A DNA stretch of 64,000 bases from Nitrospirales bacterium (GTDB lineage: Bacteria > Nitrospirota > Nitrospiria > Nitrospirales > UBA8639): positions 10,067 to 74,066 of the forward strand of contig JAJDVY010000033.1 in NCBI GenBank assembly GCA_022825885.1, in the 5' to 3' direction. Position 1 is the stretch's first letter. The number at the start of each line of letters is the position of its first letter. The position numbers were made by a program, and so were the translations under genes. The notes under the pieces are model-generated. The model worked only from the letters and a program-made list of their open reading frames with translations, made no database searches and was not told the DNA's origin. Positions 8,728 through 55,853 of the stretch are shown piece after piece.

Positions 8728-10215
8728 ATGACCAGTCCTCGACATTCCACGCGTCTTTCCAAGTCCAGGTTTCTTTCAGGTCTGCAATGCCATAAACGGT
8801 TGTATTTGGAAATCCATGCCCCCCAGTTGGCCGCCGATATTGATGACCGGCGCCGGATGGTGCTGGATATGGGCAAAGAAATTAATGAAATCGCGCACAG
8901 GTATTTCCCCTGCGGCGTGTTGGTTGCCGAAGATCATCGTCATGCATCCGCTGCCCTGGAAAAGACGTCTGCACTGATGGCTGATCCGGACGTGCCCGCT
9001 ATTTTTGAAGGGGCGTTTCAATTCGAGGGGACGTTGGTCCGGGTCGACGTGCTTGAACGGGTCGATGGTGCCTGGAAGTTGATTGAAGTGAAGGCAGCCT
9101 CACGCGTGAAATCCGTCCACCTTGACGATCTGGCCGTGCAAACCCACGTGCTCCGGGGAAACGGCCTCGAACTGAACGGAATTTTTTTGATGCACGTGAA
9201 TCGACAGTATGCCTATCCCGGCGGGGACGTGGACCTGCAACGATTATTTGCGCTCGAAGACCTCACGGAGGCCATTCAGGAAAAACTGGCGGATATCCCT
9301 CCGCGCTTGGATGAGATGCACGCGATGCTCGGTGAAAGCCGTTCACCCGACGTCGAACCGGACCACCATTGTCACTCGCCTTACGAATGCCCGTTCTGGT
9401 CCCATTGTACGGCTGCCAAGCCGGCGCGGTGGGTCTATTATCTTCCCGGTCGTAAAGACCTTGTGCGCCGGTTGCGCCAACAGGGCGTTGAAACCATCGA
9501 CGAGATTCCCGTTCAGGTTTCTCTTTCGCATTTGCAACAACGCGTGCGGGAGAACGTGGAATGGATGTCGCCGAAGCTGGCGCAGAAGCTTCACTCGGTT
9601 CGGTATCCGGTTCATCATTTGGATTTTGAGACGGTGATGCCCGCGGTTCCCTTGTATGCCCACACGTATCCCTATCAGCCCATCCCGATTCAATGGTCGA
9701 ACCATACGGAATCGGAAGACGGTTCTTTGGGGCATACCGCCTATTTATGTGTCGAACACAAAGATCCGCGTGAAGAAATCGCCGTGAGTCTGTTGGAATC
9801 CGTCGGGGAAGAAGGTAGTATCTGTGTCTACTCCGAGTATGAACAGTATATCGTGAATGCCTTGGCCGAAGCCGTGCCTCGTCTGCGAAAAGACTTGCTT
9901 CGAGTCGGAGAGCGCCTTTGGGATCTCCTGGAAGTGCTGCAAAGCCATTATTACCATCCGGATTTTCAAGGGTCGTTTTCCATCAAATCCGTGCTGCCGG
10001 CTCTCGTCCCGTCGCTGGACTATGGCGACTTGGAAATCAAGGATGGCGCCACCGCGTCGGCAACGTATCATCGAATGATGTATGTCGTGACCGATTGGGT
10101 CGAGCGTCAACGCCTGGCATCGGCGCTGCTTGCCTATTGCGCGCGGGATACGTTGGGCATGGTGGAACTCCGCCGGGTTCTGGCTCAAAAAGCGCAGTCG
10201 GCGGCCCCGTCGTAG
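8728..10215 (+). CDS. DUF2779 domain protein with Cas4/PD-(D/E)XK-like nuclease N-terminal region
   Basis: The N-terminus LSKSRFLSGLQCHKRLYLE is typical of DUF2779. The Cys cluster C-x5-C-x5-C (HHCHSPYECPFWSHC) together with the N-terminal C resembles the Cas4/AddB-type Fe-S motif. Confidence 0.6.
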   Translation: MTSPRHSTRLSKSRFLSGLQCHKRLYLEIHAPQLAADIDDRRRMVLDMGKEINEIAHRYFPCGVLVAEDHRHASAALEKTSALMADPDVPAIFEGAFQFEGTLVRVDVLERVDGAWKLIEVKAASRVKSVHLDDLAVQTHVLRGNGLELNGIFLMHVNRQYAYPGGDVDLQRLFALEDLTEAIQEKLADIPPRLDEMHAMLGESRSPDVEPDHHCHSPYECPFWSHCTAAKPARWVYYLPGRKDLVRRLRQQGVETIDEIPVQVSLSHLQQRVRENVEWMSPKLAQKLHSVRYPVHHLDFETVMPAVPLYAHTYPYQPIPIQWSNHTESEDGSLGHTAYLCVEHKDPREEIAVSLLESVGEEGSICVYSEYEQYIVNALAEAVPRLRKDLLRVGERLWDLLEVLQSHYYHPDFQGSFSIKSVLPALVPSLDYGDLEIKDGATASATYHRMMYVVTDWVERQRLASALLAYCARDTLGMVELRRVLAQKAQSAAPS

Positions 10216-44010: not shown

Positions 44011-45162
44011 ATGCCCATGCAAAAACTTCAACGGCGAGTGACGAACCGTTTGCGTGAAACGCGGGTTGCCGCCGGTCTCTCCCAAGGTGATTTGGCGAAA
44101 AGTGCGGGTATTACGCGGCAAGCTCTTTATGCCATGGAAAAAGATCAGTATCTCCCGGGTACGGAAGTCGCGTTGCAACTTGCCCGCACGTTGGGGAGGT
44201 CGGTTGAGGACCTGTTCTCTTTACGTGACAACCGGGAAATTCTCGAGGCGAATTTGCCGTCGGACCATTCCGGGTCTTTGGCGTCCACCAGGGTGAAGTT
44301 GGCGATCGTAGGGACTCGTTTGATAGCCAAGCCCCTGACGGAACTGGGGGACGTCTTGAATTATACGGTTCCCGCTGATGCCTTGATTCTGGGAACGGCT
44401 TCCCGGAGGAAACATTCGGTTTACGTGCGTCTCCTGAAAAGCCATGAGGACGTGGAGCGGCAGGTCGTTGTGGCGGGGTGCGACCCGGCTATATATCTGG
44501 CCGGAGAGCACGTTCGCCGGCAAGGAGGGAATGCGTCGGTCGTTGGGTGGAACATGACGAGCCTTGCTGCCTTGCGCGCATTAAAGCGGGGAGACGTCCA
44601 TGTGGCGGGGATTCATATGATGGACCCCCGTTCCGGGGAGTACAACCTTCCCTTCTTGAAGAGGTATTTGCAAGGGCAAGCCGTGACCGTCGTTCGGTTT
44701 GCCACGTGGCAGGAAGGGTTGTTGGTGAAGGAAGGGAATCCCAAACACGTCCGCGGCCTCGAAGATCTGACCAGGTCCGATATACGAATGGTCAACCGTG
44801 AGAAGGGTGCGGGGGCCCGCTTGCTCCTGGATTATTTGCTGTCACGTCATCGCATTCCGAGTCAGGTCGTGAGGGGCTATGGGGCCATCGCTTTTTCCCA
44901 GATCGGCCTCGGTCGATGGATTGCTGAAGGGAGGGCGGACGTCGGCATCGGTGTGCAGGCCGTGGCCCAATTGTATAATTTTGATTTCATTCCCTTGCAG
45001 GAAGAACGGTATGACCTGGTCATTCCGACGGCCTACATCGATTCGCATCCCGGCATGAAAATATTCCTGGACACCCTGGGCACGCACAAGTTTCAACAGG
45101 AAATCGAAGCGCTGGGAGGGTATGACGCCAAAGAGAGCGGGAAAGTGATCGGGGAACAATAG
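44011..45162 (+). CDS. XRE-type HTH regulator fused to a periplasmic-binding-protein-like (molybdate/tungstate-binding type) domain; TunR-like
   Basis: N-terminal LRETRVAAGLSQGDLAKSAGITRQALYAMEKDQ (HTH_XRE). The C-terminal region of about 250 aa is PBP-like. It lies directly upstream of the porin-modABC genes. Confidence 0.6.
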   Translation: MPMQKLQRRVTNRLRETRVAAGLSQGDLAKSAGITRQALYAMEKDQYLPGTEVALQLARTLGRSVEDLFSLRDNREILEANLPSDHSGSLASTRVKLAIVGTRLIAKPLTELGDVLNYTVPADALILGTASRRKHSVYVRLLKSHEDVERQVVVAGCDPAIYLAGEHVRRQGGNASVVGWNMTSLAALRALKRGDVHVAGIHMMDPRSGEYNLPFLKRYLQGQAVTVVRFATWQEGLLVKEGNPKHVRGLEDLTRSDIRMVNREKGAGARLLLDYLLSRHRIPSQVVRGYGAIAFSQIGLGRWIAEGRADVGIGVQAVAQLYNFDFIPLQEERYDLVIPTAYIDSHPGMKIFLDTLGTHKFQQEIEALGGYDAKESGKVIGEQ

Positions 45163-45262
45163 TCCGGAGCTTTGCACGCCAAGGACGCTGGTTCCCCGGT
45201 CGGAGCCGGTCCTTGCTTTGACCTGAACGCGTTCTTTGGTTATCTCATGATGTAAAGAATAT

Positions 45263-45291
45263 TTGACTTATAGTAAACTATAAAATAGCAT
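45263..45291 (+). promoter_or_regulatory. Candidate promoter with embedded palindromic operator upstream of porin-modABC
   Basis: TTGACT (45263-45268), a 17-nt spacer, then TAGCAT (45286-45291). The spacer contains the palindrome TTATAG-TAAA-CTATAA (45268-45283). The ATG at 45299 follows 8 nt later, with no SD. Confidence 0.4.
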
Positions 45292-45298
45292 CATTTTT

Positions 45299-46762
45299 AT
45301 GGTCTTGAGCTTTGGAAAGACGTGCCGGGCTTTTGCATGGATTGGCGGTTTGGTTTTGTGTGCCTGGAGCAGTATGGCATCCGCCTCCATGGAGGACTCT
45401 CACCGAACGGCGGGCGGGTTGCTCGCACGGGCTTCGAGTGTGCAGGTAACGGAGCCCGCGGATGCCGTCCTCATTCAACCCAGGGAATGGAAATGGAATC
45501 GGTACCTGAAGGCCGCCCTGCGTTTGCCGGATTGGCTGGATCTTGGACTCGAACACCGGACGCGTTTTGAAACCTATGATCATCCATGGCGACGCAGCCA
45601 ACCTGCCGGTCAAACGGACTCTCAGATTCAACAGCGGTCCCGTATCCGGTTGGGTCTGAACGGGGAGTACGTCAAGTTTTTGTTTGAAGGACAGGATGCC
45701 AGGGTCCACCTCGACGGCGTTGAGAGCTACGTCACCACGGCCATCAGGAATGAAATGGACGTGTTGCAGCTCATGGCGTCTATCACGTTGAACAACGTGT
45801 TGGGAACCGGTCTTCGTACGGACCTGCACGTTGGACGGCTGACGATGGACTTCGGACGGGGCCGGCTGATCATCCGGAACGACTATCGGAATACATCGAA
45901 TGCGTTTGACGGGGCGCATTGGCAATTGGGACGGGAAAAGAGTTGGCGCATCCGCCTGTTTCTGGTTGAACCCGTCCTGCGGGACGTCGTCCAACCTGAC
46001 GAACAGTCCCAACGCAGCGTCTTTTGGGGCACCTCCCTTGAAACCAATGACACGTCGCCGATGCGCCTCAACGTTTACTATTTCGGATTGAATGACCAAC
46101 GGAGCGTCAACGTCGACCGCCACAGAACGTTTTCGACTTTCGGAACGCGCCTCTATGATGAGCCGGAAACGGGAAGAATCGATTATGAAATCGAGAGCGT
46201 CTGGCAAACGGGGAAAAGGGGCACGATCAATCACGTTGCCCATTTCCAGCATCTTGATATTGGTTACACCCTGGATCTCCCGTGGTCGCCCCGATTCCTG
46301 GTTCATTACGACTACGCCAGCGGGGACCGGAACGCGCGGGACAGCCAGGATTCGGCTTTTGATACGCTGTTTGGCGCAAGACGTTTCGATTATATGCCCA
46401 CCGGCAATTTCGGACCGTTTTTTCGGTCGAATTTCAGTTCGCCGGGATGGCGGGTGATTGCGGTTCCGTGCCGGGGGTGCGAAGTGCAACTCAAACATCG
46501 GGTATGGTATCTCGCCACCGCGCGGGGCGCGTTTGGCCGTAACGGATTGCACGATCCCACCGGCGGGTCAGGGAATTTTCTCGGCCATGACCTTGAACTG
46601 CGAGCCCAGTGGAGAACGAACGACAACCTGGAATTCGAATTAGGCTACACGCATTGGTTTAAAGGCAGTTATTTCGACAGGCTTCCCGACTCTGCGGGGT
46701 TGCCTCCCGGCGGGAACAAGGATAGCGATTATTTCTACATACAGACGAAGTTCCGGCTGTAG
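45299..46762 (+). CDS. Outer-membrane beta-barrel porin (alginate-export-like family)
   Basis: A signal peptide ending ASA. It has alternating beta-strand-like sequence rich in Y/R/D/G/N and the C-terminal end ..YFYIQTKFRL. It is positioned upstream of modA. Confidence 0.5.
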   Translation: MVLSFGKTCRAFAWIGGLVLCAWSSMASASMEDSHRTAGGLLARASSVQVTEPADAVLIQPREWKWNRYLKAALRLPDWLDLGLEHRTRFETYDHPWRRSQPAGQTDSQIQQRSRIRLGLNGEYVKFLFEGQDARVHLDGVESYVTTAIRNEMDVLQLMASITLNNVLGTGLRTDLHVGRLTMDFGRGRLIIRNDYRNTSNAFDGAHWQLGREKSWRIRLFLVEPVLRDVVQPDEQSQRSVFWGTSLETNDTSPMRLNVYYFGLNDQRSVNVDRHRTFSTFGTRLYDEPETGRIDYEIESVWQTGKRGTINHVAHFQHLDIGYTLDLPWSPRFLVHYDYASGDRNARDSQDSAFDTLFGARRFDYMPTGNFGPFFRSNFSSPGWRVIAVPCRGCEVQLKHRVWYLATARGAFGRNGLHDPTGGSGNFLGHDLELRAQWRTNDNLEFELGYTHWFKGSYFDRLPDSAGLPPGGNKDSDYFYIQTKFRL

Positions 46763-46852
46763 GGATTGATAGGCCATGGGAAAGAACGGTGGGGAAAGGG
46801 TTGCGGCGAGGGGAAAGAAACCGTGTTTGCAGGCCCGGACGGTGCGCATGCC

Positions 46853-47614
46853 ATGATCGCCAGACTTCATCGTTTGCTGTTCCTTCTGTTCTTGACGATT
46901 TGTCCTGCAACCGGTGCCGCCGAAGAAGTACGCGTGGCCGTCGCAGCCAATTTTCTCGTGACGCTCAATGAAATTGCGACCAATTTTGAACGAGACACGG
47001 GGCACACTGCCGTTGTCAGTTCGGGATCAAGCGGCAAACTCTATGCGCAGATCAGAAACGGCGCCCCGTTCGACGTGTTTTTTTCCGCCGACGTGATGCG
47101 TCCGAAGTTGCTGGAAGAAGAAGGATTCGCGGTTCAGGGGAGCCGGTTTGCGTACGCCGTGGGACGGCTCACGTTGTGGAGCCGCGCTTCCACCCTGATC
47201 GAAGGGAATGGAGCATCCATGCTGTTGAGCGATGACGTCGAGTACGTGGCCATTGCGAATCCCAAAACTGCGCCTTACGGTGTCGCCGCCAAGGAAGCCT
47301 TGCAGTCACTGGGATTTTGGGAACGGGTGCAGGGCCGGTTGGTCCGGGGAGAAAATATCGGGCAAACCTTCCACTTTGTGTTTTCGAAGAATGCCCAACT
47401 GGGATTCGTCGCCCTGTCACAGGTATTGGACCCCAAAGTCAATGGGGCCGGAAGCCGATGGGACGTGCCGACGCATTTGTATGTTCCGATCCGGCAACAA
47501 GCGGTCCTGTTGCGCGCCGGTCAACGTCATGAAGTCGCACGCGCGTTCCTGGACTACGTGAAAGGAGCCAAGTCCCGTGGCGTCATTGAACGATTCGGTT
47601 ATGGCTTGGAGTGA
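46853..47614 (+). CDS. modA: Molybdate ABC transporter substrate-binding protein
   Basis: Start refined to ATG 46853, giving a signal peptide. Pattern ..VRVAVAANF...L..I...FE..TGH.V..S.GSSG.LY.QI.NGAPFDVF.SAD.. Confidence 0.9.
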   Translation: MIARLHRLLFLLFLTICPATGAAEEVRVAVAANFLVTLNEIATNFERDTGHTAVVSSGSSGKLYAQIRNGAPFDVFFSADVMRPKLLEEEGFAVQGSRFAYAVGRLTLWSRASTLIEGNGASMLLSDDVEYVAIANPKTAPYGVAAKEALQSLGFWERVQGRLVRGENIGQTFHFVFSKNAQLGFVALSQVLDPKVNGAGSRWDVPTHLYVPIRQQAVLLRAGQRHEVARAFLDYVKGAKSRGVIERFGYGLE

Positions 47615-47635
47615 TCGAGACCCGGGAGTCAAAGG

Positions 47636-48319
47636 ATGAGCATCCCGGAAATGGATTGGACCCCGTTGTGGCTGACCATGCAACTGGCAGGGGTGACCGT
47701 TGTGGTGTTGTTGCTGGTCGGTACCCCAATGGCATGGTGGTTGGCCTTCACGCGTTCGCGGTTCAGGACGCTGGTAGAGGCCATCGTGGCACTGCCCATT
47801 GTTCTGCCGCCAACCGTTCTCGGATTTTATCTGTTGGTCGCGCTTGGACCCCATGGCTTGATTGGCGGTCCCTGGAAGGACCTGACCGGATCGGCACTCT
47901 CGTTCACGTTTACGGGGTTGGTGATTGCCTCGACGTTCTATTCGCTTCCGTTTGTCGTTCAACCCCTGCATGGCGCATTCGAGGCCGTCGGCAAAAAGCC
48001 TTTGGAAGCCGCCTGGTCTCTCGGAGCCTCAAGACTTGACGCCTTTTTTACCGTGGCGTCGCCCATGGCGGTTCGAGGATACTTGAGCGCCGTTGTCCTG
48101 GGTTTTGCTCATACGCTTGGCGAGTTCGGCGTCGTGCTGATGGTTGGCGGAAATATCCCCGGGGTGACTAAAGTCCTCTCCATTGCCATCTATGATCACG
48201 TCGAGGTGCTTGAATATACCCAAGCCCATTTTCTTTCGGCGATGCTCCTTGCATTCAGTTTTCTCATTCTTGCGATCGTCTATACGGTCAACCGGCGTTT
48301 GCCCATTCACGTCTCATGA
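47636..48319 (+). CDS. modB: Molybdate ABC transporter permease
   Basis: Multi-pass membrane protein with an EAA-like loop (..LEAAWSLGASRLDAFFTV..). Confidence 0.9.
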   Translation: MSIPEMDWTPLWLTMQLAGVTVVVLLLVGTPMAWWLAFTRSRFRTLVEAIVALPIVLPPTVLGFYLLVALGPHGLIGGPWKDLTGSALSFTFTGLVIASTFYSLPFVVQPLHGAFEAVGKKPLEAAWSLGASRLDAFFTVASPMAVRGYLSAVVLGFAHTLGEFGVVLMVGGNIPGVTKVLSIAIYDHVEVLEYTQAHFLSAMLLAFSFLILAIVYTVNRRLPIHVS

Positions 48320-49398
48320 GTCAACTTGACGCGCGTTTCCACATCGACTATCCGGGGTTTCGTTTTGACGTGGCGTGTAGGGTCCCGCTTGACGGGCTGA
48401 TTGCCGTGTTTGGATCGTCCGGGAGCGGCAAGACCACGCTGTTGAGGTGTATCGCCGGCTTAACCCGGGCTTCTTCGGGGTTTCTTCAATTCGACGAGGC
48501 TGTTTGGCAGGACGACGCTCGCGGGGTTTTTCTGCCGGTTGAGCGGCGACGGGTGGGAGTCGTGTTTCAAGAAGCGCGACTGTTTCCCCACCTGACCGTC
48601 ACGCAAAACCTCACGTATGGGATGAAGCGCAGCAGCCCATCTTCGCGGCGCATCGAATTTGATCACGTCAGCGCGTTGTTGCGACTCGAGCCTCTCTTTC
48701 AGCGCCGGGTGTCTCACTTGTCCGGTGGTGAACAGCAACGAGTGGCAATAGGAAGAGCCTTGTTACGCAATCCGCAGCTCTTGCTGATGGATGAGCCCTT
48801 GGCCTCACTTGACCGGCAGCGAAAAAAAGAAATCGTTCCCTTCCTTCAGCAACTCAACCGGGAATTCCGCATCCCGGTCCTGTACGTCAGCCACGATCTT
48901 CACGAAGTTTTGCAGCTTGCCAATCACATGGTCCTGTTAAAAGAGGGGAGCGTGGCGGCGACCGGACCGATTCAGGACGTCTTTGCCCGATTGGACTTGC
49001 CGGAGTTGGTGGAATCGAACGCGGTCGGAGCTATTCTTGAAACGCGGATTGTCGAGCATGAACCGCATTTCGGGCTGACACGGGTTGAATTTTTGGGGCA
49101 ATCCCTTTTTCTCCCTCAACAGGCCCTTCCGCCCGGTGCGCCGTTGAGGGTGCAAATCCTGTCGCGTGACGTGAGCTTGACCGTCGGCGCTCCTCTTGCG
49201 GCCAGCAGCGCGTTGAATGCGTTGGAGGCGACGATTACCGAGGTCAGCGAATCACCGGGAGATCCTTACGCCGTCGAAGTGAAGCTCGACGTGGGTTCTC
49301 CGTTATTGGCCATGATTACGAGAAAATCGTTTCATCAACTTCGGCTGAAACCCGGCCAACAAGTCCATGCCTCTTTCAAGGCCGTGGCATTAAACTAG
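48316..49398 (+). CDS. modC: Molybdenum ABC transporter ATP-binding protein
   Basis: Walker A GSSGSGKTT, signature LSGGEQQRV, Walker B LLLMDEP, and a C-terminal Mop/TOBE-like domain. A 4-nt overlap links it to modB. Confidence 0.92.
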   Translation: MSQLDARFHIDYPGFRFDVACRVPLDGLIAVFGSSGSGKTTLLRCIAGLTRASSGFLQFDEAVWQDDARGVFLPVERRRVGVVFQEARLFPHLTVTQNLTYGMKRSSPSSRRIEFDHVSALLRLEPLFQRRVSHLSGGEQQRVAIGRALLRNPQLLLMDEPLASLDRQRKKEIVPFLQQLNREFRIPVLYVSHDLHEVLQLANHMVLLKEGSVAATGPIQDVFARLDLPELVESNAVGAILETRIVEHEPHFGLTRVEFLGQSLFLPQQALPPGAPLRVQILSRDVSLTVGAPLAASSALNALEATITEVSESPGDPYAVEVKLDVGSPLLAMITRKSFHQLRLKPGQQVHASFKAVALN

Positions 49399-49884: not shown

Positions 49885-50391
49885 TTATCGGCGTTCGACG
49901 GGAACTTCGGTAGCCGTCGAATGCTGGATCCGATACGCGCGGATGATGGGATTCATCTTGTCTTGGAGGGAAATGATGACGTGGACGGGTTCGGGAATAT
50001 TGAGTTTTTCCCTGTAGCTCTCAAATTCCATGGCGATAGTAATATCCGTAGTGGATGGACGGGCAGGGCTGAACGTATGCGAATGGTAAAAGGCCTTTAG
50101 CGTCAGGCCTTTTTGACGAATGTCTTTTTGCGCTTGTGACATTTCCTGCGCATCCATCTGGAAGGCGATATCGGCGCGTTCTTCGGGAGAAAGTTGTGTC
50201 AGGTCGGACAGCTTGGCCTGGTCGAAACGGGCCAATTCAGCGTCACTCATCTTGGCCAGGATGTTGGTAATCCGGTAATGCTCGGTCATGACGGTGTCCC
50301 GGCCGGCCAAAATTCCGCAACATTCATGAGGGTCCAGGAGCCGCGCGTGCTCGATCATGTCTTCCCAAATCTCTGAAGGAATCGAAAGCAT
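49885..50391 (-). CDS. JAMM/MPN+ metalloprotease (Mec+/HcyD-like)
   Basis: It contains PHECCGIL (the catalytic E) and FYHSHTFSPARPSTTD, which is H-x-H-x7-S-x2-D. ATG at 50391, with an alternative TTG at 50400. It is the last gene of the sulfur-carrier operon. Confidence 0.8.
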   Translation of the reverse strand: MLSIPSEIWEDMIEHARLLDPHECCGILAGRDTVMTEHYRITNILAKMSDAELARFDQAKLSDLTQLSPEERADIAFQMDAQEMSQAQKDIRQKGLTLKAFYHSHTFSPARPSTTDITIAMEFESYREKLNIPEPVHVIISLQDKMNPIIRAYRIQHSTATEVPVERR

Positions 50392-50474
50392 GACGATCAA
50401 CGGCGGTCAGCGCGTTTGGGGTTTTCCTGAAACCGGGCCGCGGACAATCCCTGGCCGGGCTCTCTCCATTGACG

Positions 50475-51275
50475 TTACACGCTGCACGAGACGTGGTGCT
50501 CTTCCAGGGTGGTGATTGTCGGGTTGGCGCTGCAGAGTGGACAGCGGGGATCCTTGGGGCGCCTGACGATACGGAACTTCATTTCGAGCGCATCGTAGAT
50601 CAGTAAACGGTCAGCGAGTGTGTCCCCTATCTCCAGGATTTCTTTTATGGCTTCATTGGCCTGTAGAATACCGATTGTGCCCGCGAGGACGCCCAATACT
50701 CCGGCTTCCTGGCAACTGGGGACCAATCCGGCAGGCGGCGGTTCAGGGTAGAGACAACGATAGCAGGGGTAGCCCTTCTGCGGTTTGATTGTGGCAAGCT
50801 GCCCTTCAAAACGAAAGATGCTCCCCGAGATCAAGGTTTTTTTCGCAAAGTAGCAGGCGTCACTCACCAGGAACCGGGTGCCGAAGTTATCGGACCCGTC
50901 CAGCACAAGGTCGTAGTTCGGCAACAACGTCATAATATTTTCGGCGCTGATGTGCTCCTGATACGTGTGCACCAGGACGTCGGGGTTCAACGCCTCCAGG
51001 AGCCGGCGGCCGGATTCGACCTTGGGGACTCCCACGTGAGGCGTGGTGTGGAGGACTTGCCGTTGCAGGTTCGACAGATCGACCACGTCGCCGTCAATCA
51101 ACCCGATCGTGCCGATACCCGCTGCTCCCAGGTACAAGGCGATTGGCGAACCCAGGCCTCCGGCCCCAACCACGAGGATTTTGGCCCGGTTCAGTTTTTG
51201 TTGACCCTTGCCGCCGACCTCCTCGAGGATGATCTGCCGGCTATAGCGTTCGATTTGGTCTTCGGTAAAATCCAC
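50475..51275 (-). CDS. ThiF/MoeB-type E1-like adenylyltransferase (copy 1; no rhodanese domain)
   Basis: RYSRQIILEEVGGKGQQKL, VVGAGGLGSP, and two CxxC pairs (CYRC, CPLC). 266 aa. Confidence 0.88.
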   Translation of the reverse strand: MDFTEDQIERYSRQIILEEVGGKGQQKLNRAKILVVGAGGLGSPIALYLGAAGIGTIGLIDGDVVDLSNLQRQVLHTTPHVGVPKVESGRRLLEALNPDVLVHTYQEHISAENIMTLLPNYDLVLDGSDNFGTRFLVSDACYFAKKTLISGSIFRFEGQLATIKPQKGYPCYRCLYPEPPPAGLVPSCQEAGVLGVLAGTIGILQANEAIKEILEIGDTLADRLLIYDALEMKFRIVRRPKDPRCPLCSANPTITTLEEHHVSCSV

Positions 51276-51284
51276 GTCCGGCCT

Positions 51285-51524
51285 CTATTCCACCACGTTG
51301 AGTTCAATCGGGTCCACGAGCACGCCCTTCTCCCGCAACCCTCCAATCGCGCGTTCGATTTCTTCGGTTTCGCCTGAGAATTCCACGTCCATCCAGCCGG
51401 TGGTTGCACGGACGTCGGCCCGGCGGATGCTGGTGACGACCTGGTATTCATGCCCGATCTGATAAATGACGGGTTCGGGAATTTTTTCTTCCGGAAACCG
51501 AATGTGAAATCGCAGTTTAGTCAT
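51285..51524 (-). CDS. Stand-alone NIL domain protein
   Basis: ..KLRFHIRFPEEKIPEPVIYQIGHEYQVVTSIRRADVRATTGWMDVEFSGETEEIERAIGGLREKGVLVD.. follows the NIL (MetN C-terminal-like) pattern. ATG at 51524 or GTG at 51533; both overlap the upstream stop. Confidence 0.55.
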   Translation of the reverse strand: MTKLRFHIRFPEEKIPEPVIYQIGHEYQVVTSIRRADVRATTGWMDVEFSGETEEIERAIGGLREKGVLVDPIELNVVE

Positions 51525-51798
51525 GGCTGCCACCGGCGATAGCGGGAACGATGGACACCTCGTCGCCGTCTTTGACGGGCGTGTCTTTGCCCGTCAGGAA
51601 CCGGATGTCTTCTTCGTTCAGGTACACGTTGATAAACCGCCGAATCTCTCCCTGTTCGTCGCAGATCCGGTCTTTCAATCCCGGATGCGTTGCGTTCAAT
51701 TGCTCGATCAATTCGCCGATGCTGGCGCCGGTTCCTTCCACTTCACTCTTGCCTCCGGTCATCGGCCGGAGGGGAGTGGGTATGCGTACGGTGATCAT
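51517..51798 (-). CDS. MoaD/ThiS-family ubiquitin-like sulfur carrier with a GG-SHD C-terminus
   Basis: 93 aa ending ..DGDEVSIVPAIAGG-SHD*. Its start overlaps the stop of the ThrC-like gene (ATGA, 51795-51798). Confidence 0.7.
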   Translation of the reverse strand: MITVRIPTPLRPMTGGKSEVEGTGASIGELIEQLNATHPGLKDRICDEQGEIRRFINVYLNEEDIRFLTGKDTPVKDGDEVSIVPAIAGGSHD

Positions 51799-53033
51799 GC
51801 CGCCCCCTGTTGTCCAAACGTTTGTTCAAATTTAACCAGGCTCGGTGGAATGCGGAACGGACGTCCGACTGAATCCACAACGGCCTCCTGGGTTTTTAAT
51901 CCGTTGCCGGTGATATAGGCGACGGTCACGTCGTGTTTCTTGATGGCGCCTTGTTTGACGAGCTTGCGAAGGGTTCCGATGGTCACACCTCCCGCTGTTT
52001 CCGCAAAAATACCTTCCGTTTGAGCCAGTAGCTTAATACCTTCTATCACTTCGTCGTCCGTGACCGCATCCATGGCCCCTCCGCTTTCCGCGACGGTTTT
52101 CAGGGCATAGTAGCCGTCCGCGGGATTGCCGATGGCCAGGGATTTGGCAATGGTATTGGGTTTGACCGGTTTAAAGAAGTCGCGTCCGTCTTTAAACGCC
52201 GTGGCGATCGGGGAGCACCCTTCGGCCTGGGCGCCATTGACTTTCGTGGCCACGTCCTTGAGAAGGCCGATTTTTTTGAATTCATTGAGGCCTTTCCAGA
52301 TTTTGGTCAGTAACGATCCCGACGCCATGGGGACAACGACCTGATCGGGCGCTCGCCACCCCAGTTGTTCCGCGACTTCAAAGGCCAAGGTCTTCGACCC
52401 TTCGGCGTAATACGGACGGATATTCACGTTGACGAAGGCCCATCGTCGTTCGCCGGCAATCTCGCTGCACAAACGGTTGACGTCGTCGTAGTTGCCTTCG
52501 ATTTCCACGACTTTCGGCCGGTAGATCAGGTTGCCGAGGACTTTGGCCGCTTCCAGGTCGCCGGGGATGAACACGTAACATTGCATGCCGGCCTGTGCCG
52601 CGTGCGCGGCCACGGAATTAGCCAAATTGCCGGTGGAGGCACAGGCTGCGGTTTCATACCCCAGTTCCCTGGCGCGCGTCAGAGCAACGGCCACGACCCG
52701 GTCCTTAAACGACAGGGTCGGCTGGTTGACGCAGTCGTTCTTAATATACAGTTCATCGAGGCCCAAAAAGGCTCCCAGATTTTTGGCGTGAACGAGCGGC
52801 GTCATGCCGGCGTGCAGACCGATCGTCGGGCTGCCTTCGATCGGGAGCAATTCCTTGTACCGCCACAGCGACTTGGGACCGGCTTCGATCGTGGCTCGTG
52901 ACATCACCTCCTTGATTTCATCGTAGCTATATTTGACTTCCAGGGGTCCAAAGCACAGTTCACAGACGTGAAAGGCTTCCGTGGGATATTCCTTACTGCA
53001 TTCCCGGCAAATGAGGGCTTTCATCTTTGCCAT
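51795..53033 (-). CDS. thrC: Threonine synthase-like PLP enzyme with N-terminal zinc ribbon
   Basis: Start refined to ATG 53033 after GGAGG. It has CRECSKEY....CELC (a Zn ribbon), the ..PTLSFKDRV.. PLP-lysine block, and the Thr-synthase fold pattern. Confidence 0.75.
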   Translation of the reverse strand: MAKMKALICRECSKEYPTEAFHVCELCFGPLEVKYSYDEIKEVMSRATIEAGPKSLWRYKELLPIEGSPTIGLHAGMTPLVHAKNLGAFLGLDELYIKNDCVNQPTLSFKDRVVAVALTRARELGYETAACASTGNLANSVAAHAAQAGMQCYVFIPGDLEAAKVLGNLIYRPKVVEIEGNYDDVNRLCSEIAGERRWAFVNVNIRPYYAEGSKTLAFEVAEQLGWRAPDQVVVPMASGSLLTKIWKGLNEFKKIGLLKDVATKVNGAQAEGCSPIATAFKDGRDFFKPVKPNTIAKSLAIGNPADGYYALKTVAESGGAMDAVTDDEVIEGIKLLAQTEGIFAETAGGVTIGTLRKLVKQGAIKKHDVTVAYITGNGLKTQEAVVDSVGRPFRIPPSLVKFEQTFGQQGAA

Positions 53034-53065: not shown

Positions 53066-53893
53066 CTAGGAAGTCCCGAGCACCCCGGGCACTTGCAGTT
53101 GGCACGCTTCCTGTTCGTGTTCAAACAGTTCGGTAATGTCCGGATGGTCTCCGCACAAGGGACACCTGGGATTTCGTTTCGTCTTGATTTCACGAAATGC
53201 GGTTTTTCGAGCATCAAAGTCGAGGATCCGGTCGGTGAGCGGATTCCCAATCCCAAGAATCAATTTCAGCGCCTCCGTGGCCTGAATGGTCCCGATAATG
53301 CCGGCCACGACGCCGATGATGCCGGCTTCCTGGCAATTGGGCACCAGCCCGGGTGGCGGTGGATGATTGAAAATGCACCGATAGCAAGCAGATTGCCCGG
53401 GCACGATGGAGAACACCCGGCCCTCGAACCGGAGGATTCCGCCGTGGACAAGGGGTTTGCCCGCAAAATAACACGTATCATTGATGAGAAACTTGGCCGG
53501 AAACGTATCCACGCCATCAATGACCACGTCATAGGGCGCGATGTAATCCATCGCATTGGAGGCGGTGAATCGATCTTCGTAGGTTTCAACGTTCACGTCG
53601 GGATTCAGAAGAAAGATTTTTTCTTTCGCCGATTGTACCTTGGACCGTCCGACGTCGGGTGTATGGTGCAAGACTTGTCGTTGAAGATTGGACCGGTCGA
53701 CGACGTCGCTGTCTATCAAGCCAATCGTCCCGATACCGGCTGCGGCCAAATACAAGGCGACGGGGGAACCGAGCCCACCCGCTCCGACGACAAACACTTT
53801 CGCCCGGGCAATTTTTTTCTGGCCCTTTCCCCCGACCTCCGGTAACAGGATGTGCCGGCTATATCGGGTGATTTGTTCGTCCGAGAAACTCAT
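53066..53893 (-). CDS. ThiF/MoeB-type E1-like adenylyltransferase (copy 2; no rhodanese domain)
   Basis: RYSRHILLPEVGGKGQKKI, VVGAGGLGSP, CYRC and CPLC. It is a clear paralog of 50475..51275. Confidence 0.88.
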   Translation of the reverse strand: MSFSDEQITRYSRHILLPEVGGKGQKKIARAKVFVVGAGGLGSPVALYLAAAGIGTIGLIDSDVVDRSNLQRQVLHHTPDVGRSKVQSAKEKIFLLNPDVNVETYEDRFTASNAMDYIAPYDVVIDGVDTFPAKFLINDTCYFAGKPLVHGGILRFEGRVFSIVPGQSACYRCIFNHPPPPGLVPNCQEAGIIGVVAGIIGTIQATEALKLILGIGNPLTDRILDFDARKTAFREIKTKRNPRCPLCGDHPDITELFEHEQEACQLQVPGVLGTS

Positions 53894-53907
53894 CTTCCTT
53901 GATTCAA

Positions 53908-54837
53908 TTAGATATTAAAATATTTTTCGATACTCAGATACCGTTCACCCGTATCGCACAACACTGTGACGACGTGTTGGTCGGGGTTCAGGTCGTTTGC
54001 GACTTGCTGGGCCGCAAAGACGTTGGCTCCTGCGGAAATCCCTACGAGCAGCCCTTCTTTTTTCGCCAGCAGCTTCGTGGTTTGATAGGCTTGGTCGTCG
54101 GTGACTCGAATAATGTCATCAATGATAGAACGATTCAGGACTTTTGGCACAAAACCGGCGCCGATGCCCTGTATCTTATGCGGTCCGGCTGCTCCTCCCG
54201 AGAGTACCGGGGACCCCGCCGGTTCCACGGCGACGATTTTCGTATTCGGCGCACGTTCTTTCATGACCTCTCCGCAACCGGTAATGGTTCCGCCCGTGCC
54301 GACCGCCGCAACAAACGCATCGATTTTACCGTCCATGGCGTCCCAGATCTCGACCGCCGTCGTTGTCCGGTGAATGGCCGGGTTGGCCGGGTTGGAAAAC
54401 TGGTCAGGCATGAAATATTCCGGGTTTTGGGCAATAATGTTTTCGGCTTCTCGGATCGACCCCTGCATGCCTTCCCAAGCCGGGGTCAAAATCAATTGTG
54501 CGCCATAGGACGACAACAAGCTTGCCCGTTCGAGGCTCATGCTTTCCGGCATGACCAGAATCAATTTATACCCCCGAACCGCGGCGATTAACGCCAGTCC
54601 GATTCCCGTGTTCCCGCTTGTCGGTTCGACAATGGTGCCGCCGGGTTTGAGTGTGCCGTTACGTTCCGCCTCGTCGATCATATTGAGGCAGATCCGGTCC
54701 TTGACGCTCCCGCCGGGGTTGGCGAACTCCACCTTCCCGAAAATCGTGGCGCCGCCTTCCCCGGAAAGGCGATTCAACCGAACCAATGGCGTGCGACCGA
54801 TTCCCTCCGTAATTTTTGATAAATATCGGGTCGTCAC
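53908..54837 (-). CDS. cysM: Cysteine synthase (CysK/CysM family PLP enzyme)
   Basis: ..IGRTPLVRLNRL.., ..NPGGSVKDR.. (PLP lysine), ..TSGNTG.. and ..GTGGTITG.. GTG start in a GTGA overlap with the carrier gene stop. Confidence 0.88.
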   Translation of the reverse strand: MTTRYLSKITEGIGRTPLVRLNRLSGEGGATIFGKVEFANPGGSVKDRICLNMIDEAERNGTLKPGGTIVEPTSGNTGIGLALIAAVRGYKLILVMPESMSLERASLLSSYGAQLILTPAWEGMQGSIREAENIIAQNPEYFMPDQFSNPANPAIHRTTTAVEIWDAMDGKIDAFVAAVGTGGTITGCGEVMKERAPNTKIVAVEPAGSPVLSGGAAGPHKIQGIGAGFVPKVLNRSIIDDIIRVTDDQAYQTTKLLAKKEGLLVGISAGANVFAAQQVANDLNPDQHVVTVLCDTGERYLSIEKYFNI

Positions 54838-55034
54838 GCCCCTCCACCCATGTAGAACAGAAATTCCAACGTATCGCCGTCTTGGACGTTCGTGGTTTCG
54901 AGCCGGTCTCGTTCGACGATTTGAGTATTGAGTTCAACGGCCACCATATGCGGGTCGATATCTTTTTGTTTCAGGACGTCCATAATGGTATCGGCCTGCA
55001 TTTCTTCGGGTTTTCCATTAATGGTGATTTGCAT
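54834..55034 (-). CDS. ThiS-family ubiquitin-like sulfur carrier with a GGG-A C-terminus
   Basis: Start refined to ATG 55034 after GGTGGAG. The 66-aa product is MQITINGKPE...VQDGDTLEFLFYMGGGA*. Confidence 0.7.
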   Translation of the reverse strand: MQITINGKPEEMQADTIMDVLKQKDIDPHMVAVELNTQIVERDRLETTNVQDGDTLEFLFYMGGGA

Positions 55035-55124
55035 GACGTTCTCCACCGTATGGGTATGACTATAAACATGTAAGGATAACAAACTTGTAACAATTTCGTC
55101 AAGAAAATGTGAAAATACAAGGGG

Positions 55125-55853
55125 TTATGAAATCAGTTGAGGCACCAGGTCTTTGGCGTGACCTTGGATGGCTACGTCCACGAGGCTGGAATGAGGCGTC
55201 GGATCGAGATTCAATTCCACCACGAAGGCGCCATTGTCTTTGGCAATGGGCCCGAAAGACGCGGCCGGGTAGACCACGCCTGACGTTCCGATAATCAGGA
55301 GCACGTCGCACTTGCGCAACGCGTCGAAACTTTTTTGCAAATCTTCAGGATCCAGGGATTCCCCAAACCAGACGATGTGAGGCCGAAGCAGCCCCCGGCA
55401 GGTTGCACATTCCGGCAGGATAGCGATGGGAACGTCGCGATTGACGGTAATCCGTCCGCATTGCGTGCAGCGCACTTTCCAAATATTGCCGTGAATTTCC
55501 GACAGGCGTTGAGAGCCGGCCAACGGATGAAGTCCATCGACGTTTTGCGTAATAAGCCAATATTGATCAATCCTGTGCTCCAGTTCCACCAGGGCGGCAT
55601 GGGCCGGGTTGGGGCGTTTGGTTGCAATGAGTTCGCGGCGCCAGTTGTACCATTCCCACACGAGTTTGGGGTTGCGGGCAAAAGCCTCAGGCGAGGCCAG
55701 CTCTTCGGGCCGGTGATCCTTCCACATCCCATCGCCCCCTCGAAACGTCGGCACCCCGCTGTCCGCGGAAATGCCGGCTCCGGTCAGGACCGTCACCGCG
55801 GTGGCGGAGGCAAGTCTCGCCTTCAGCTCCTGAATCGGGGAGGAAGCGTTCAT
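55125..55853 (-). CDS. cobB: NAD-dependent protein deacylase (Sir2 family)
   Basis: GAGISADSGVPTFRG, zinc Cys pairs CTQCG..CATC, and GTSGVVYPAA. Confidence 0.9.
   Translation of the reverse strand: MNASSPIQELKARLASATAVTVLTGAGISADSGVPTFRGGDGMWKDHRPEELASPEAFARNPKLVWEWYNWRRELIATKRPNPAHAALVELEHRIDQYWLITQNVDGLHPLAGSQRLSEIHGNIWKVRCTQCGRITVNRDVPIAILPECATCRGLLRPHIVWFGESLDPEDLQKSFDALRKCDVLLIIGTSGVVYPAASFGPIAKDNGAFVVELNLDPTPHSSLVDVAIQGHAKDLVPQLIS

Follow-up and report, generated by a model that had tools for sequence, protein, structure and literature searches.

What might a threonine synthase homologue, a ubiquitin-like sulfur carrier and a small NIL-domain protein, encoded by three overlapping genes, be doing together? 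The question is raised by a stretch of 64,000 nucleotides from a Nitrospirales bacterium (assembly GCA_022825885.1, contig JAJDVY010000033.1, forward-strand positions 10,067 to 74,066), hereafter called the window. A preliminary description of this DNA had placed a ThrC-like, a MoaD-like and a NIL gene at 51285-53033, and had suggested that the ThrC-like enzyme may use the thiocarboxylate of the carrier to form homocysteine. The placement is correct, with the ThrC-like gene at 53033-51795, the MoaD-like gene at 51798-51517 and the NIL gene at 51524-51285, all on the minus strand, and the suggested chemistry draws support from a conserved gene linkage, a separate clade, S-adenosylmethionine (SAM) riboswitches in relatives and a dedicated E1 enzyme and JAB protease. 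What had been missed is the surroundings, namely two E1 genes, a JAB protease gene and a ThiS-CysK module, which complete the system. The trio lies in the middle of a row of eight same-strand genes separated by 0-74 nt, in the order ThiS-like, CysK-like, ThiF, ThrC-like, MoaD-like, NIL, ThiF and JAB protease. As a whole, this row is probably best explained as a thiocarboxylate-based operon for sulfur amino acids, in which a homocysteine branch stands beside a parallel cysteine module and the NIL protein may act as a methionine-sensing third component. The core idea is not new, since the MetM/MetO route has already been published, and the window holds a new and unusually complete member of it, joined to a CysO/CysM-like module; the new part is the conserved NIL component, sometimes fused to the carrier, which makes the operon a new MetM/MetO variant.

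The ThrC-like enzyme and its sulfur carrier

The ThrC-like gene (51795..53033, minus strand) begins with an ATG at 53033, preceded by GGAAGGAGG, and ends with its stop at 51795; the 412 residues encoded equal the length of the closest homologues. Translation confirms the Zn ribbon and the pyridoxal phosphate (PLP)-lysine block first read in the protein, as four N-terminal cysteines (C9-x2-C12...C24-x2-C27) are present and the PLP-binding lysine of SFKDRV, K110, is invariant in the alignment of relatives, as befits a fold-type II PLP enzyme (PALP, 1.4e-67; signature NIRPYYAEGSKT). The two overlaps described earlier can likewise be read in the sequence: the TGA stop of the ThrC-like gene shares an ATGA with the carrier start (junction GGC ATG ATC), and the end of the carrier gene overlaps the NIL gene by eight bases (ATGACTAA). 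The carrier itself (51517..51798, minus strand) is a MetO-like protein of 93 residues with a beta-grasp ThiS/MoaD domain (Pfam ThiS, 3.5e-19), the C-terminal residues AIAGG-SHD, and a ThiF and a JAB gene downstream.

At least 600 matches to the ThrC-like protein came from a scan covering one genome per species, and the best 80 of them, with 59-96% identity, were analysed. These span Nitrospirota, Cyanobacteria (the majority), Chloroflexota/Dehalococcoidia, Actinomycetota and Thermodesulfobacteriota, as well as Planctomycetia, Sumerlaeota, Omnitrophota and Aquificaceae. A MoaD-like gene lies directly 3' of the ThrC-like gene in about 70 of the 80, so the linkage from which the homocysteine proposal had started is kept in relatives. 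Since the order of ThrC-like, carrier and NIL genes is found again in further genera of Nitrospirota and across many other phyla, the arrangement of the trio is not due to chance. The complete eight-gene row, together with a Sir2 gene, is found again in Ca. Nitronereus thalassa (locus L001; loci are cited by such numbers where needed), and the row also occurs in L002-L010, from Nitrospirales, Nitrospiraceae and Manganitrophaceae genomes. The best database matches are labelled Nitrospira sp., sponge-associated bins among them, and every named entry among the matches listed carries the label 'threonine synthase', under which MetM is often misannotated (GapMind 2026).

In a neighbour-joining tree, the 81 ThrC-like proteins form one clade, with 53-96% identity within it and 31-40% identity to four solved bacterial threonine synthases and to canonical ThrC paralogues, so that the comparison with bona fide ThrC suggested at the outset puts the window protein in a separate clade. 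An actinobacterial representative from Micromonosporaceae (P0245; 53-55% identity) shares all three clade signatures, STGNLANS, SFKDRVV and N(I/L)RP(Y/F)Y(A/S)EGSKT. With reference to Thermus thermophilus ThrC, T88 is replaced in the clade by L137, S155 by N204, N157 by R206, R160 by Y209 and N188 by S238, with A222 further replaced by C273 and W249 by G307; L137, N204, Y209 and S238 are invariant or nearly so, and position 206 holds an arginine. T88, S155, R160 and N188 are residues which we take to surround the substrate or product phosphate in ThrC. The Zn ribbon, about 55 extra N-terminal residues, is an addition relative to the solved ThrCs, because these align with the window protein only from about residue 46-57, and it is not specific to the clade, as a more distant group (35-38% identity) combines a ribbon with ThrC-type motifs. 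C273, in the block QAEGCSPI, is a cysteine in 98% of the clade and an alanine in threonine synthases; judged from the alignment, it might take part in thiocarboxylate or persulfide handling.

The link with methionine comes from regulation and from a published precedent. In 11 loci that belong to several phyla (L057, L060, L070, L073, L074, L080, L081, L089, L097, L109 and L118), the ThrC-like gene is immediately preceded by a SAM riboswitch (RF00162, 65-96 bits). The Streptomyces case mentioned in the preliminary description is real: according to papers that cite it, the MetM/MetO thiocarboxylate pathway of Streptomyces albulus was described by Hasebe et al. (2024, Appl Environ Microbiol 90:e01247-24, PMC11497804), and for the conversion of O-phosphohomoserine to homocysteine a preprint names MetO as carrier, Mec as hydrolase, MoeZ as ligase and MetM as the MetO-thiocarboxylate-dependent synthase (GapMind 2026 preprint). 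The S. albulus metM gene has a SAM riboswitch, and the ThrC of Microcystis (PCC7806), which adjoins a metO-like gene, is 51.6% identical to S. albulus MetM (mSystems paper). A Microcystis orthologue (L063) falls within the clade and is 62% identical to the window protein. Through this chain of identities and the gene context, membership of the window protein in the MetM family appears well supported, if indirectly, and the operon very probably makes homocysteine from O-phosphohomoserine via carrier-borne sulfur, the ThrC-like protein being the candidate O-phosphohomoserine-dependent homocysteine synthase.

The operon also encodes a canonical ThrC, shorter and directly following NIL, at L053, L055, L059, L117, L124, L135-L138 and L140, and Microcystis carries a separate ThrC2; a second ThrC homologue was not found within the window. 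Because both enzymes coexist, often in one operon, the MetM-like enzyme and canonical ThrC are not redundant. The canonical ThrC of about 360 residues lies at 1948-3018 in L053, 7856-8947 in L055 and 2168-3268 in L059 and is 34-35% identical to the MetM-like protein; the loci with ThrC after NIL are of Thermodesulfovibrionia type, plus several metagenomic ones, and NIL stands there between two enzymes that consume O-phosphohomoserine. As for Aquificaceae, a gene of the MetM clade (L011, 148-1377; 65% identity, all signature motifs) has no carrier gene within 6 kb downstream; Aquifex was listed among the organisms without a known homocysteine pathway (Price et al., 2018).

Several points weigh against homocysteine formation by this enzyme. 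The window protein exceeds the cut-off of the TIGR00260 thrC model (305 bits vs. 167), its assignment to MetM is indirect, no SAM riboswitch was found in the window, and the activities reported for the Microcystis homologue are those of a threonine deaminase and, weakly, of a threonine synthase, with no increase of methionine in vivo (mSystems paper). The model score and the deaminase activity would suit an alternative in which the enzyme is a plain threonine synthase, or synthase/deaminase, and the MoaD, ThiF and JAB proteins serve molybdenum-cofactor synthesis or ubiquitin-like tagging; the modABC genes adjoining the operon at 46766-49398 and the passing score of the carrier in the SAMP1 model (63.6 bits vs. 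a cut-off of 60) point the same way. This alternative is nevertheless most improbable, given that the clade is separate from ThrC with active-site positions altered, that canonical ThrC coexists with it even in one operon, that SAM riboswitches precede the ThrC-like gene in relatives, and that the carrier gene is translationally coupled to the ThrC-like gene in most loci across phyla. Besides, the scores of the E1 and JAB proteins of the window stay under the cut-offs of the SAMP system, and no MoaE gene is present in the eight-gene row. A molybdenum-cofactor role of the MoaD-like gene was rejected in view of this coupling across phyla and the lack of MoaE, and the neighbouring molybdate cluster could lead annotators to misread the MoaD- and MoeB-like genes as cofactor genes.

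The NIL protein, its distribution and its fusions

The NIL gene (51285..51524, minus strand) encodes a stand-alone NIL-domain protein (Pfam NIL, 3.5e-13; 49.6 bits vs. a cut-off of 24) with the motif TSIRRA and the C-terminus NVVE. Its start is the ATG at 51524 and not the GTG at 51533 of the open reading frame (ORF) listing, because the homologues, in their hundreds, have 79 residues. The family is marked by FP..LI.EP.I, T(N/S)IRRA, G(W/E)..LEL.G and a C-terminal (D/N)V(V/I)E, and the stand-alone proteins are 76-96% identical across Nitrospirota, with 34 invariant columns. At 79 residues, the window protein consists of the NIL domain alone, with no ferredoxin domain such as NIL-ferredoxin subunits have, and it contains no cysteine. 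Among the names given to homologues, namely 'NIL domain-containing protein', 'FeS-binding protein', 'L-aspartate semialdehyde sulfurtransferase ferredoxin' and 'ABC-type methionine transport system ATPase subunit', the last three do not fit a cysteine-free, single-domain protein. An Fe-S or persulfide role was rejected in view of the absence of cysteine. One entry (80% identity), ascribed to the cyanobacterium Petrachloros mirabilis, may come from a contaminant contig.

Detected with phmmer and then with a hidden Markov model built from the matches, NIL stands beside the carrier or is fused to it in 26 of 81 genomic loci, including all Nitrospirota with enough sequence, 5 of 7 Chloroflexota, one Actinomycetota, Caldimicrobium and others; in Chloroflexota the order is ThrC-like, NIL, carrier, with NIL upstream of the carrier. 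Metagenomes were scanned with an alignment of fused carrier-NIL proteins, a query biased towards NIL-bearing loci, and, subject to this bias, 71 of the 80 metagenomic loci have NIL either as a separate neighbour of the carrier gene (54) or joined to it in a fusion (17), while in 9, some of them truncated, NIL was not seen. Of the 53 loci with enough upstream DNA, 46 have a ThrC-like gene that stops immediately ahead of the carrier gene. A profile search with the NIL alignment gave only Nitrospirota among the 120 matches listed. NIL is a widespread third component of such operons and not a peculiarity of the window. At one metagenomic locus (L147, 5263-5780), two tandem NIL ORFs follow the carrier gene. 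That no NIL protein had been described in such a cassette, as stated in the preliminary description, holds for the searchable literature, where no link of a NIL domain to sulfur carriers or ThrC homologues was found: neither NIL nor ThrC appears in a 2006 survey of ubiquitin-like systems in prokaryotes, and NIL is not among the pathway components listed in the accessible MetM/MetO sources.

Fusions, with NIL C-terminal of the carrier, occur in 23 loci (6 genomic and 17 metagenomic). The six genomic ones belong to Planctomycetia, Syntrophaceae, Sumerlaeota, Thermodesulfobacteriota, a 'Deltaproteobacteria' genome and an unclassified bacterium, and encode proteins of 171-190 residues in which the carrier ends in AGG and a linker of 3-25 residues leads to NIL, the ThiS and NIL domain pair being confirmed by Pfam. 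A JAB protease is co-encoded in all six. Since adenylation and thiocarboxylation of the carrier need a free C-terminal glycine, the fused NIL must be removed, presumably by the co-encoded JAB protease, which would cut it off before the carrier is activated. The three-residue tail of the window carrier fits the same processing logic, and the tail after the Gly-Gly varies among Nitrospirota (none, R, H, AHG, GHD, SHD or TLCRT). Because of the fusions and the constant adjacency, NIL can be taken to work with the carrier. It could do so essentially as a removable C-terminal cap or pro-domain that keeps the Gly-Gly blocked until JAB acts, the stand-alone genes then being fission products of little function. 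The variable linker length after AGG in the 23 fusions would agree with such a role, as would the overlap of the window carrier and NIL genes and the short variable tail kept by the carrier. A mere cap is nonetheless quite improbable, because NIL is highly conserved as a separate protein, persists beside carriers ending in a bare Gly-Gly at eight loci (L004, L006, L009, L010, L078, L050, L075 and L079) and lies upstream of the carrier in Chloroflexota; conservation of this kind is not expected of a relic.

Regarding the function of NIL, the fold offers an indication. The AlphaFold (AF2) model (pLDDT 83) is a beta-alpha-beta-beta-alpha-beta domain, for which the ten best Foldseek matches in the PDB are all MetN C2/NIL domains (TM 0.75-0.83), with the window motif SIR aligned in position with SIL/NII of MetN. 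The NIL domain of the methanogen homocysteine enzyme, carried by a NIL-ferredoxin subunit, has been described as methionine-binding and regulatory, as has that of MetN. From the MetN C2-like fold and these published methionine-binding regulatory domains, it is proposed, by analogy and tentatively, that NIL is a methionine-responsive regulator and a partner of the carrier, which keeps the sensor or accessory role suggested in the preliminary description as the leading possibility. A post-translational control point is plausible here, because ThrC and MetM share O-phosphohomoserine and are sometimes encoded on either side of NIL. A more specific and rather unlikely form of this proposal is an end-product-responsive gate, in which NIL bound to methionine or homocysteine would keep the carrier from being matured or recycled with the help of JAB, or would stop the ThrC-like enzyme from using it. 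If this were so, the gated cleavage in the fusions would be that of the junction between Gly-Gly and NIL, and pro-protein processing of a prokaryotic ubiquitin relative would set the split of O-phosphohomoserine between threonine and methionine.

A regulatory NIL has to be reconciled with facts that speak against it. No NIL was found in the cyanobacterial loci examined, and NIL is dispensable for the chemistry, since the cyanobacterial operons have none; the asparagine of TNIRRA, present in most relatives, is a serine in the window; and NIL is not simply a substitute regulator, because it co-occurs with SAM riboswitches. NIL as an alternative to riboswitch control is not supported, since seven riboswitch-preceded operons contain it (L070, L073, L074, L089, L097, L109 and L118). 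NIL could also be a structural adaptor or chaperone for sulfur transfer with no ligand sensing, for instance by helping the thiocarboxylated carrier to dock on MetM, or on the E1 and JAB proteins. That NIL is either fused to the carrier or invariably next to it speaks for such physical cooperation, the surface motifs TNIRRA and (D/N)V(V/I)E are strongly conserved, and NIL also partners, as NIL-ferredoxin, the non-homologous COG1900 homocysteine enzyme. An adaptor is all the same an unlikely answer, as the cyanobacterial MetM-MetO pairs, and reportedly the Streptomyces pair too, work without NIL, the NIL domains characterised so far, all of them MetN C2 domains, bind methionine and have a regulatory function, and a cysteine-free protein cannot itself relay sulfur.

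Proposed carrier activation, the protease and a putative parallel cysteine module

The genes on both sides of the trio supply what a thiocarboxylate route would call for. Downstream of NIL stand a ThiF/MoeB-type E1 adenylyltransferase, E1 no. 2 (50475..51275, minus strand; 266 residues; Pfam ThiF, 5.2e-78; NF004281 MoeB, 302 bits vs. a cut-off of 266), which is the presumed MetO activator, and a Mec/HcyD-like JAB/JAMM metalloprotease (49885..50400, minus strand; 171 residues; Pfam Prok-JAB, 3.4e-17), whose motif E26...HSHTFSPARPSTTD, of the pattern E...HxHx7Sx2D, is intact as read from the translation. Upstream of the ThrC-like gene, E1 no. 1, of the same type (53066..53893, minus strand; 275 residues; Pfam ThiF, 7.8e-84), is 58% identical to E1 no. 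2, and neither has a rhodanese domain.

E1 no. 1 belongs to a second module (53066-55082, minus strand), in which a ThiS-like carrier is translationally coupled to a CysK-type synthase with its own ThiF/MoeB enzyme. The ThiS-like gene (54834..55034, minus strand; about 66 residues, ending in MGGG-A; Pfam ThiS, 1.7e-09; TIGR01683 thiS, 62.8 bits) has an uncertain start, its longest ORF extending to 55082 and the gene called in L001 having 66 residues, and its stop overlaps the start of the CysK/CysM-type PLP cysteine synthase gene (53908..54837, minus strand; 309 residues; PALP, 6.8e-81; TIGR01139 cysK, 452 bits vs. a cut-off of 351). In 10 of 10 Nitrospirota, this carrier ends in MGGG followed by one or two variable residues (A, M, R, Q, L, I or AR), which look like a removable cap, by analogy with HcyS-Ala. 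The operon has a single JAB protease for its two carriers. A fused version of the system is seen in a metagenome-assembled genome of Actinomycetota (L067, 4416-8542), with JAB, an apparent ThiS-CysK fusion (372-residue ORF), a MetM-like enzyme, a MoaD-ThiF fusion of 355 residues (AGG-SLSE-ThiF, confirmed by Pfam) and a stand-alone NIL.

Taken together, these genes would form a self-contained Nitrospira operon for protein-thiocarboxylate-dependent synthesis of sulfur amino acids, the steps of which, namely tail removal, carrier activation and homocysteine formation, are proposed by analogy with known systems. The 93-residue carrier would be made with its tail GG-SHD, which the JAB protease would trim. 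The exposed Gly-Gly would then be adenylated by ThiF/MoeB no. 2, and sulfur transfer would yield the carrier thiocarboxylate. The ThrC-like PLP enzyme would eliminate phosphate from O-phospho-L-homoserine and add the carrier thiocarboxylate at C-gamma, after which the JAB protease would hydrolyse the carrier-homocysteine adduct to L-homocysteine and regenerated carrier. The ThiS-like and CysK-like proteins and ThiF no. 1 would operate in parallel as a CysO/CysM-type cysteine module. In the least certain step, NIL would most likely be a small ligand-binding subunit of ACT-like type, responsive to methionine (or possibly to homocysteine or SAM), through which the carrier's maturation or use is modulated, and this would control the sharing of O-phosphohomoserine between threonine and methionine.

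Regarding the wider surroundings, a gene for a Sir2-family deacylase (55125-55853, minus strand) lies directly upstream of the operon, as it does in L001 (5532-6260). On the other side, a divergent molybdate uptake cluster (44011-49398, plus strand) encodes, as judged by eye from the translations, ModA, ModB, a ModC-like protein, a regulator of the HTH/periplasmic-binding type and a porin-like protein. Promoter and terminator scans gave counts no better than those of shuffled sequence.

Known thiocarboxylate systems and meaning for Nitrospira

With S. albulus MetM/MetO, the window shares a ThrC-homologous PLP enzyme beside a MoaD/ThiS-type carrier, the substrate O-phosphohomoserine (putative here), the requirement for a JAB (Mec) protease and an E1, and relatives under SAM riboswitches. 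It differs in that the metM- and metO-like genes share their operon with the E1 and JAB genes, that its E1 has no rhodanese domain, unlike MoeZ, that the window has no riboswitch, and that it has an additional conserved gene for NIL, a protein which other lineages have fused to the carrier. In the CysM/CysO/Mec+/MoeZ system of Mycobacterium tuberculosis, a thiocarboxylated beta-grasp carrier feeds a PLP enzyme that acts on an O-phospho amino acid; the product is cysteine, made from O-phosphoserine and released from the carrier by a JAMM protease. The ThiS-CysK-ThiF genes of the window look like its direct counterpart, while the M. tuberculosis enzyme is of the CysK/CysM and not of the ThrC type and no NIL component is known there. 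The HcyS/HcyD/HcyF/MetY system of Wolinella succinogenes (Krishnamoorthy and Begley, 2011) reportedly makes homocysteine from a carrier thiocarboxylate, the C-terminal extension of the carrier being removed by a JAMM protease and a dedicated E1 taking part. It relies on O-acetylhomoserine and a MetY-type enzyme of a different fold, again with no known NIL component. Price et al. (2018) refer to this route as the 'protein thiocarboxylate pathway'.

NIL itself has the fold of the MetN C2 domains (PDB 3dhw, 3dhx, 2qsw and 2qrr), with the S/N-I-L/R motif aligned and a tie to methionine; C2 is the C-terminal part of an ABC ATPase, whereas NIL of the window type stands alone or is fused to a carrier. 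With the NIL-ferredoxin (MA1822) of the L-aspartate-semialdehyde sulfurtransferase (DUF39/COG1900) it shares the company of a homocysteine-forming enzyme, but MA1822 has a ferredoxin domain, an unrelated partner enzyme and aspartate semialdehyde as substrate. The fusions recall Deinococcus radiodurans, in which a linear MoaD-MoaE fusion is reported to be cleaved by the JAMM protease DR0402 (Yang et al., 2018). In both cases a carrier is fused via its C-terminal Gly-Gly to a partner and freed, presumably so for NIL, by a JAMM protease; the D. radiodurans case differs in that it concerns molybdopterin synthase and that the fused partner is a catalytic subunit and not a small ACT-like domain.

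Once the operon is recognised as the MetM/MetO route, metabolic reconstructions can be corrected, both for Nitrospira, a group of key nitrite oxidisers, and for many further phyla. The carrier-NIL fusions add a case of a prokaryotic ubiquitin-like protein that needs JAMM release from a fused partner. In these bacteria, as in plants, O-phosphohomoserine would feed both threonine and methionine, and a small domain of methionine-binding type, joined to the sulfur carrier, suggests itself as a point of control over the split between the two.

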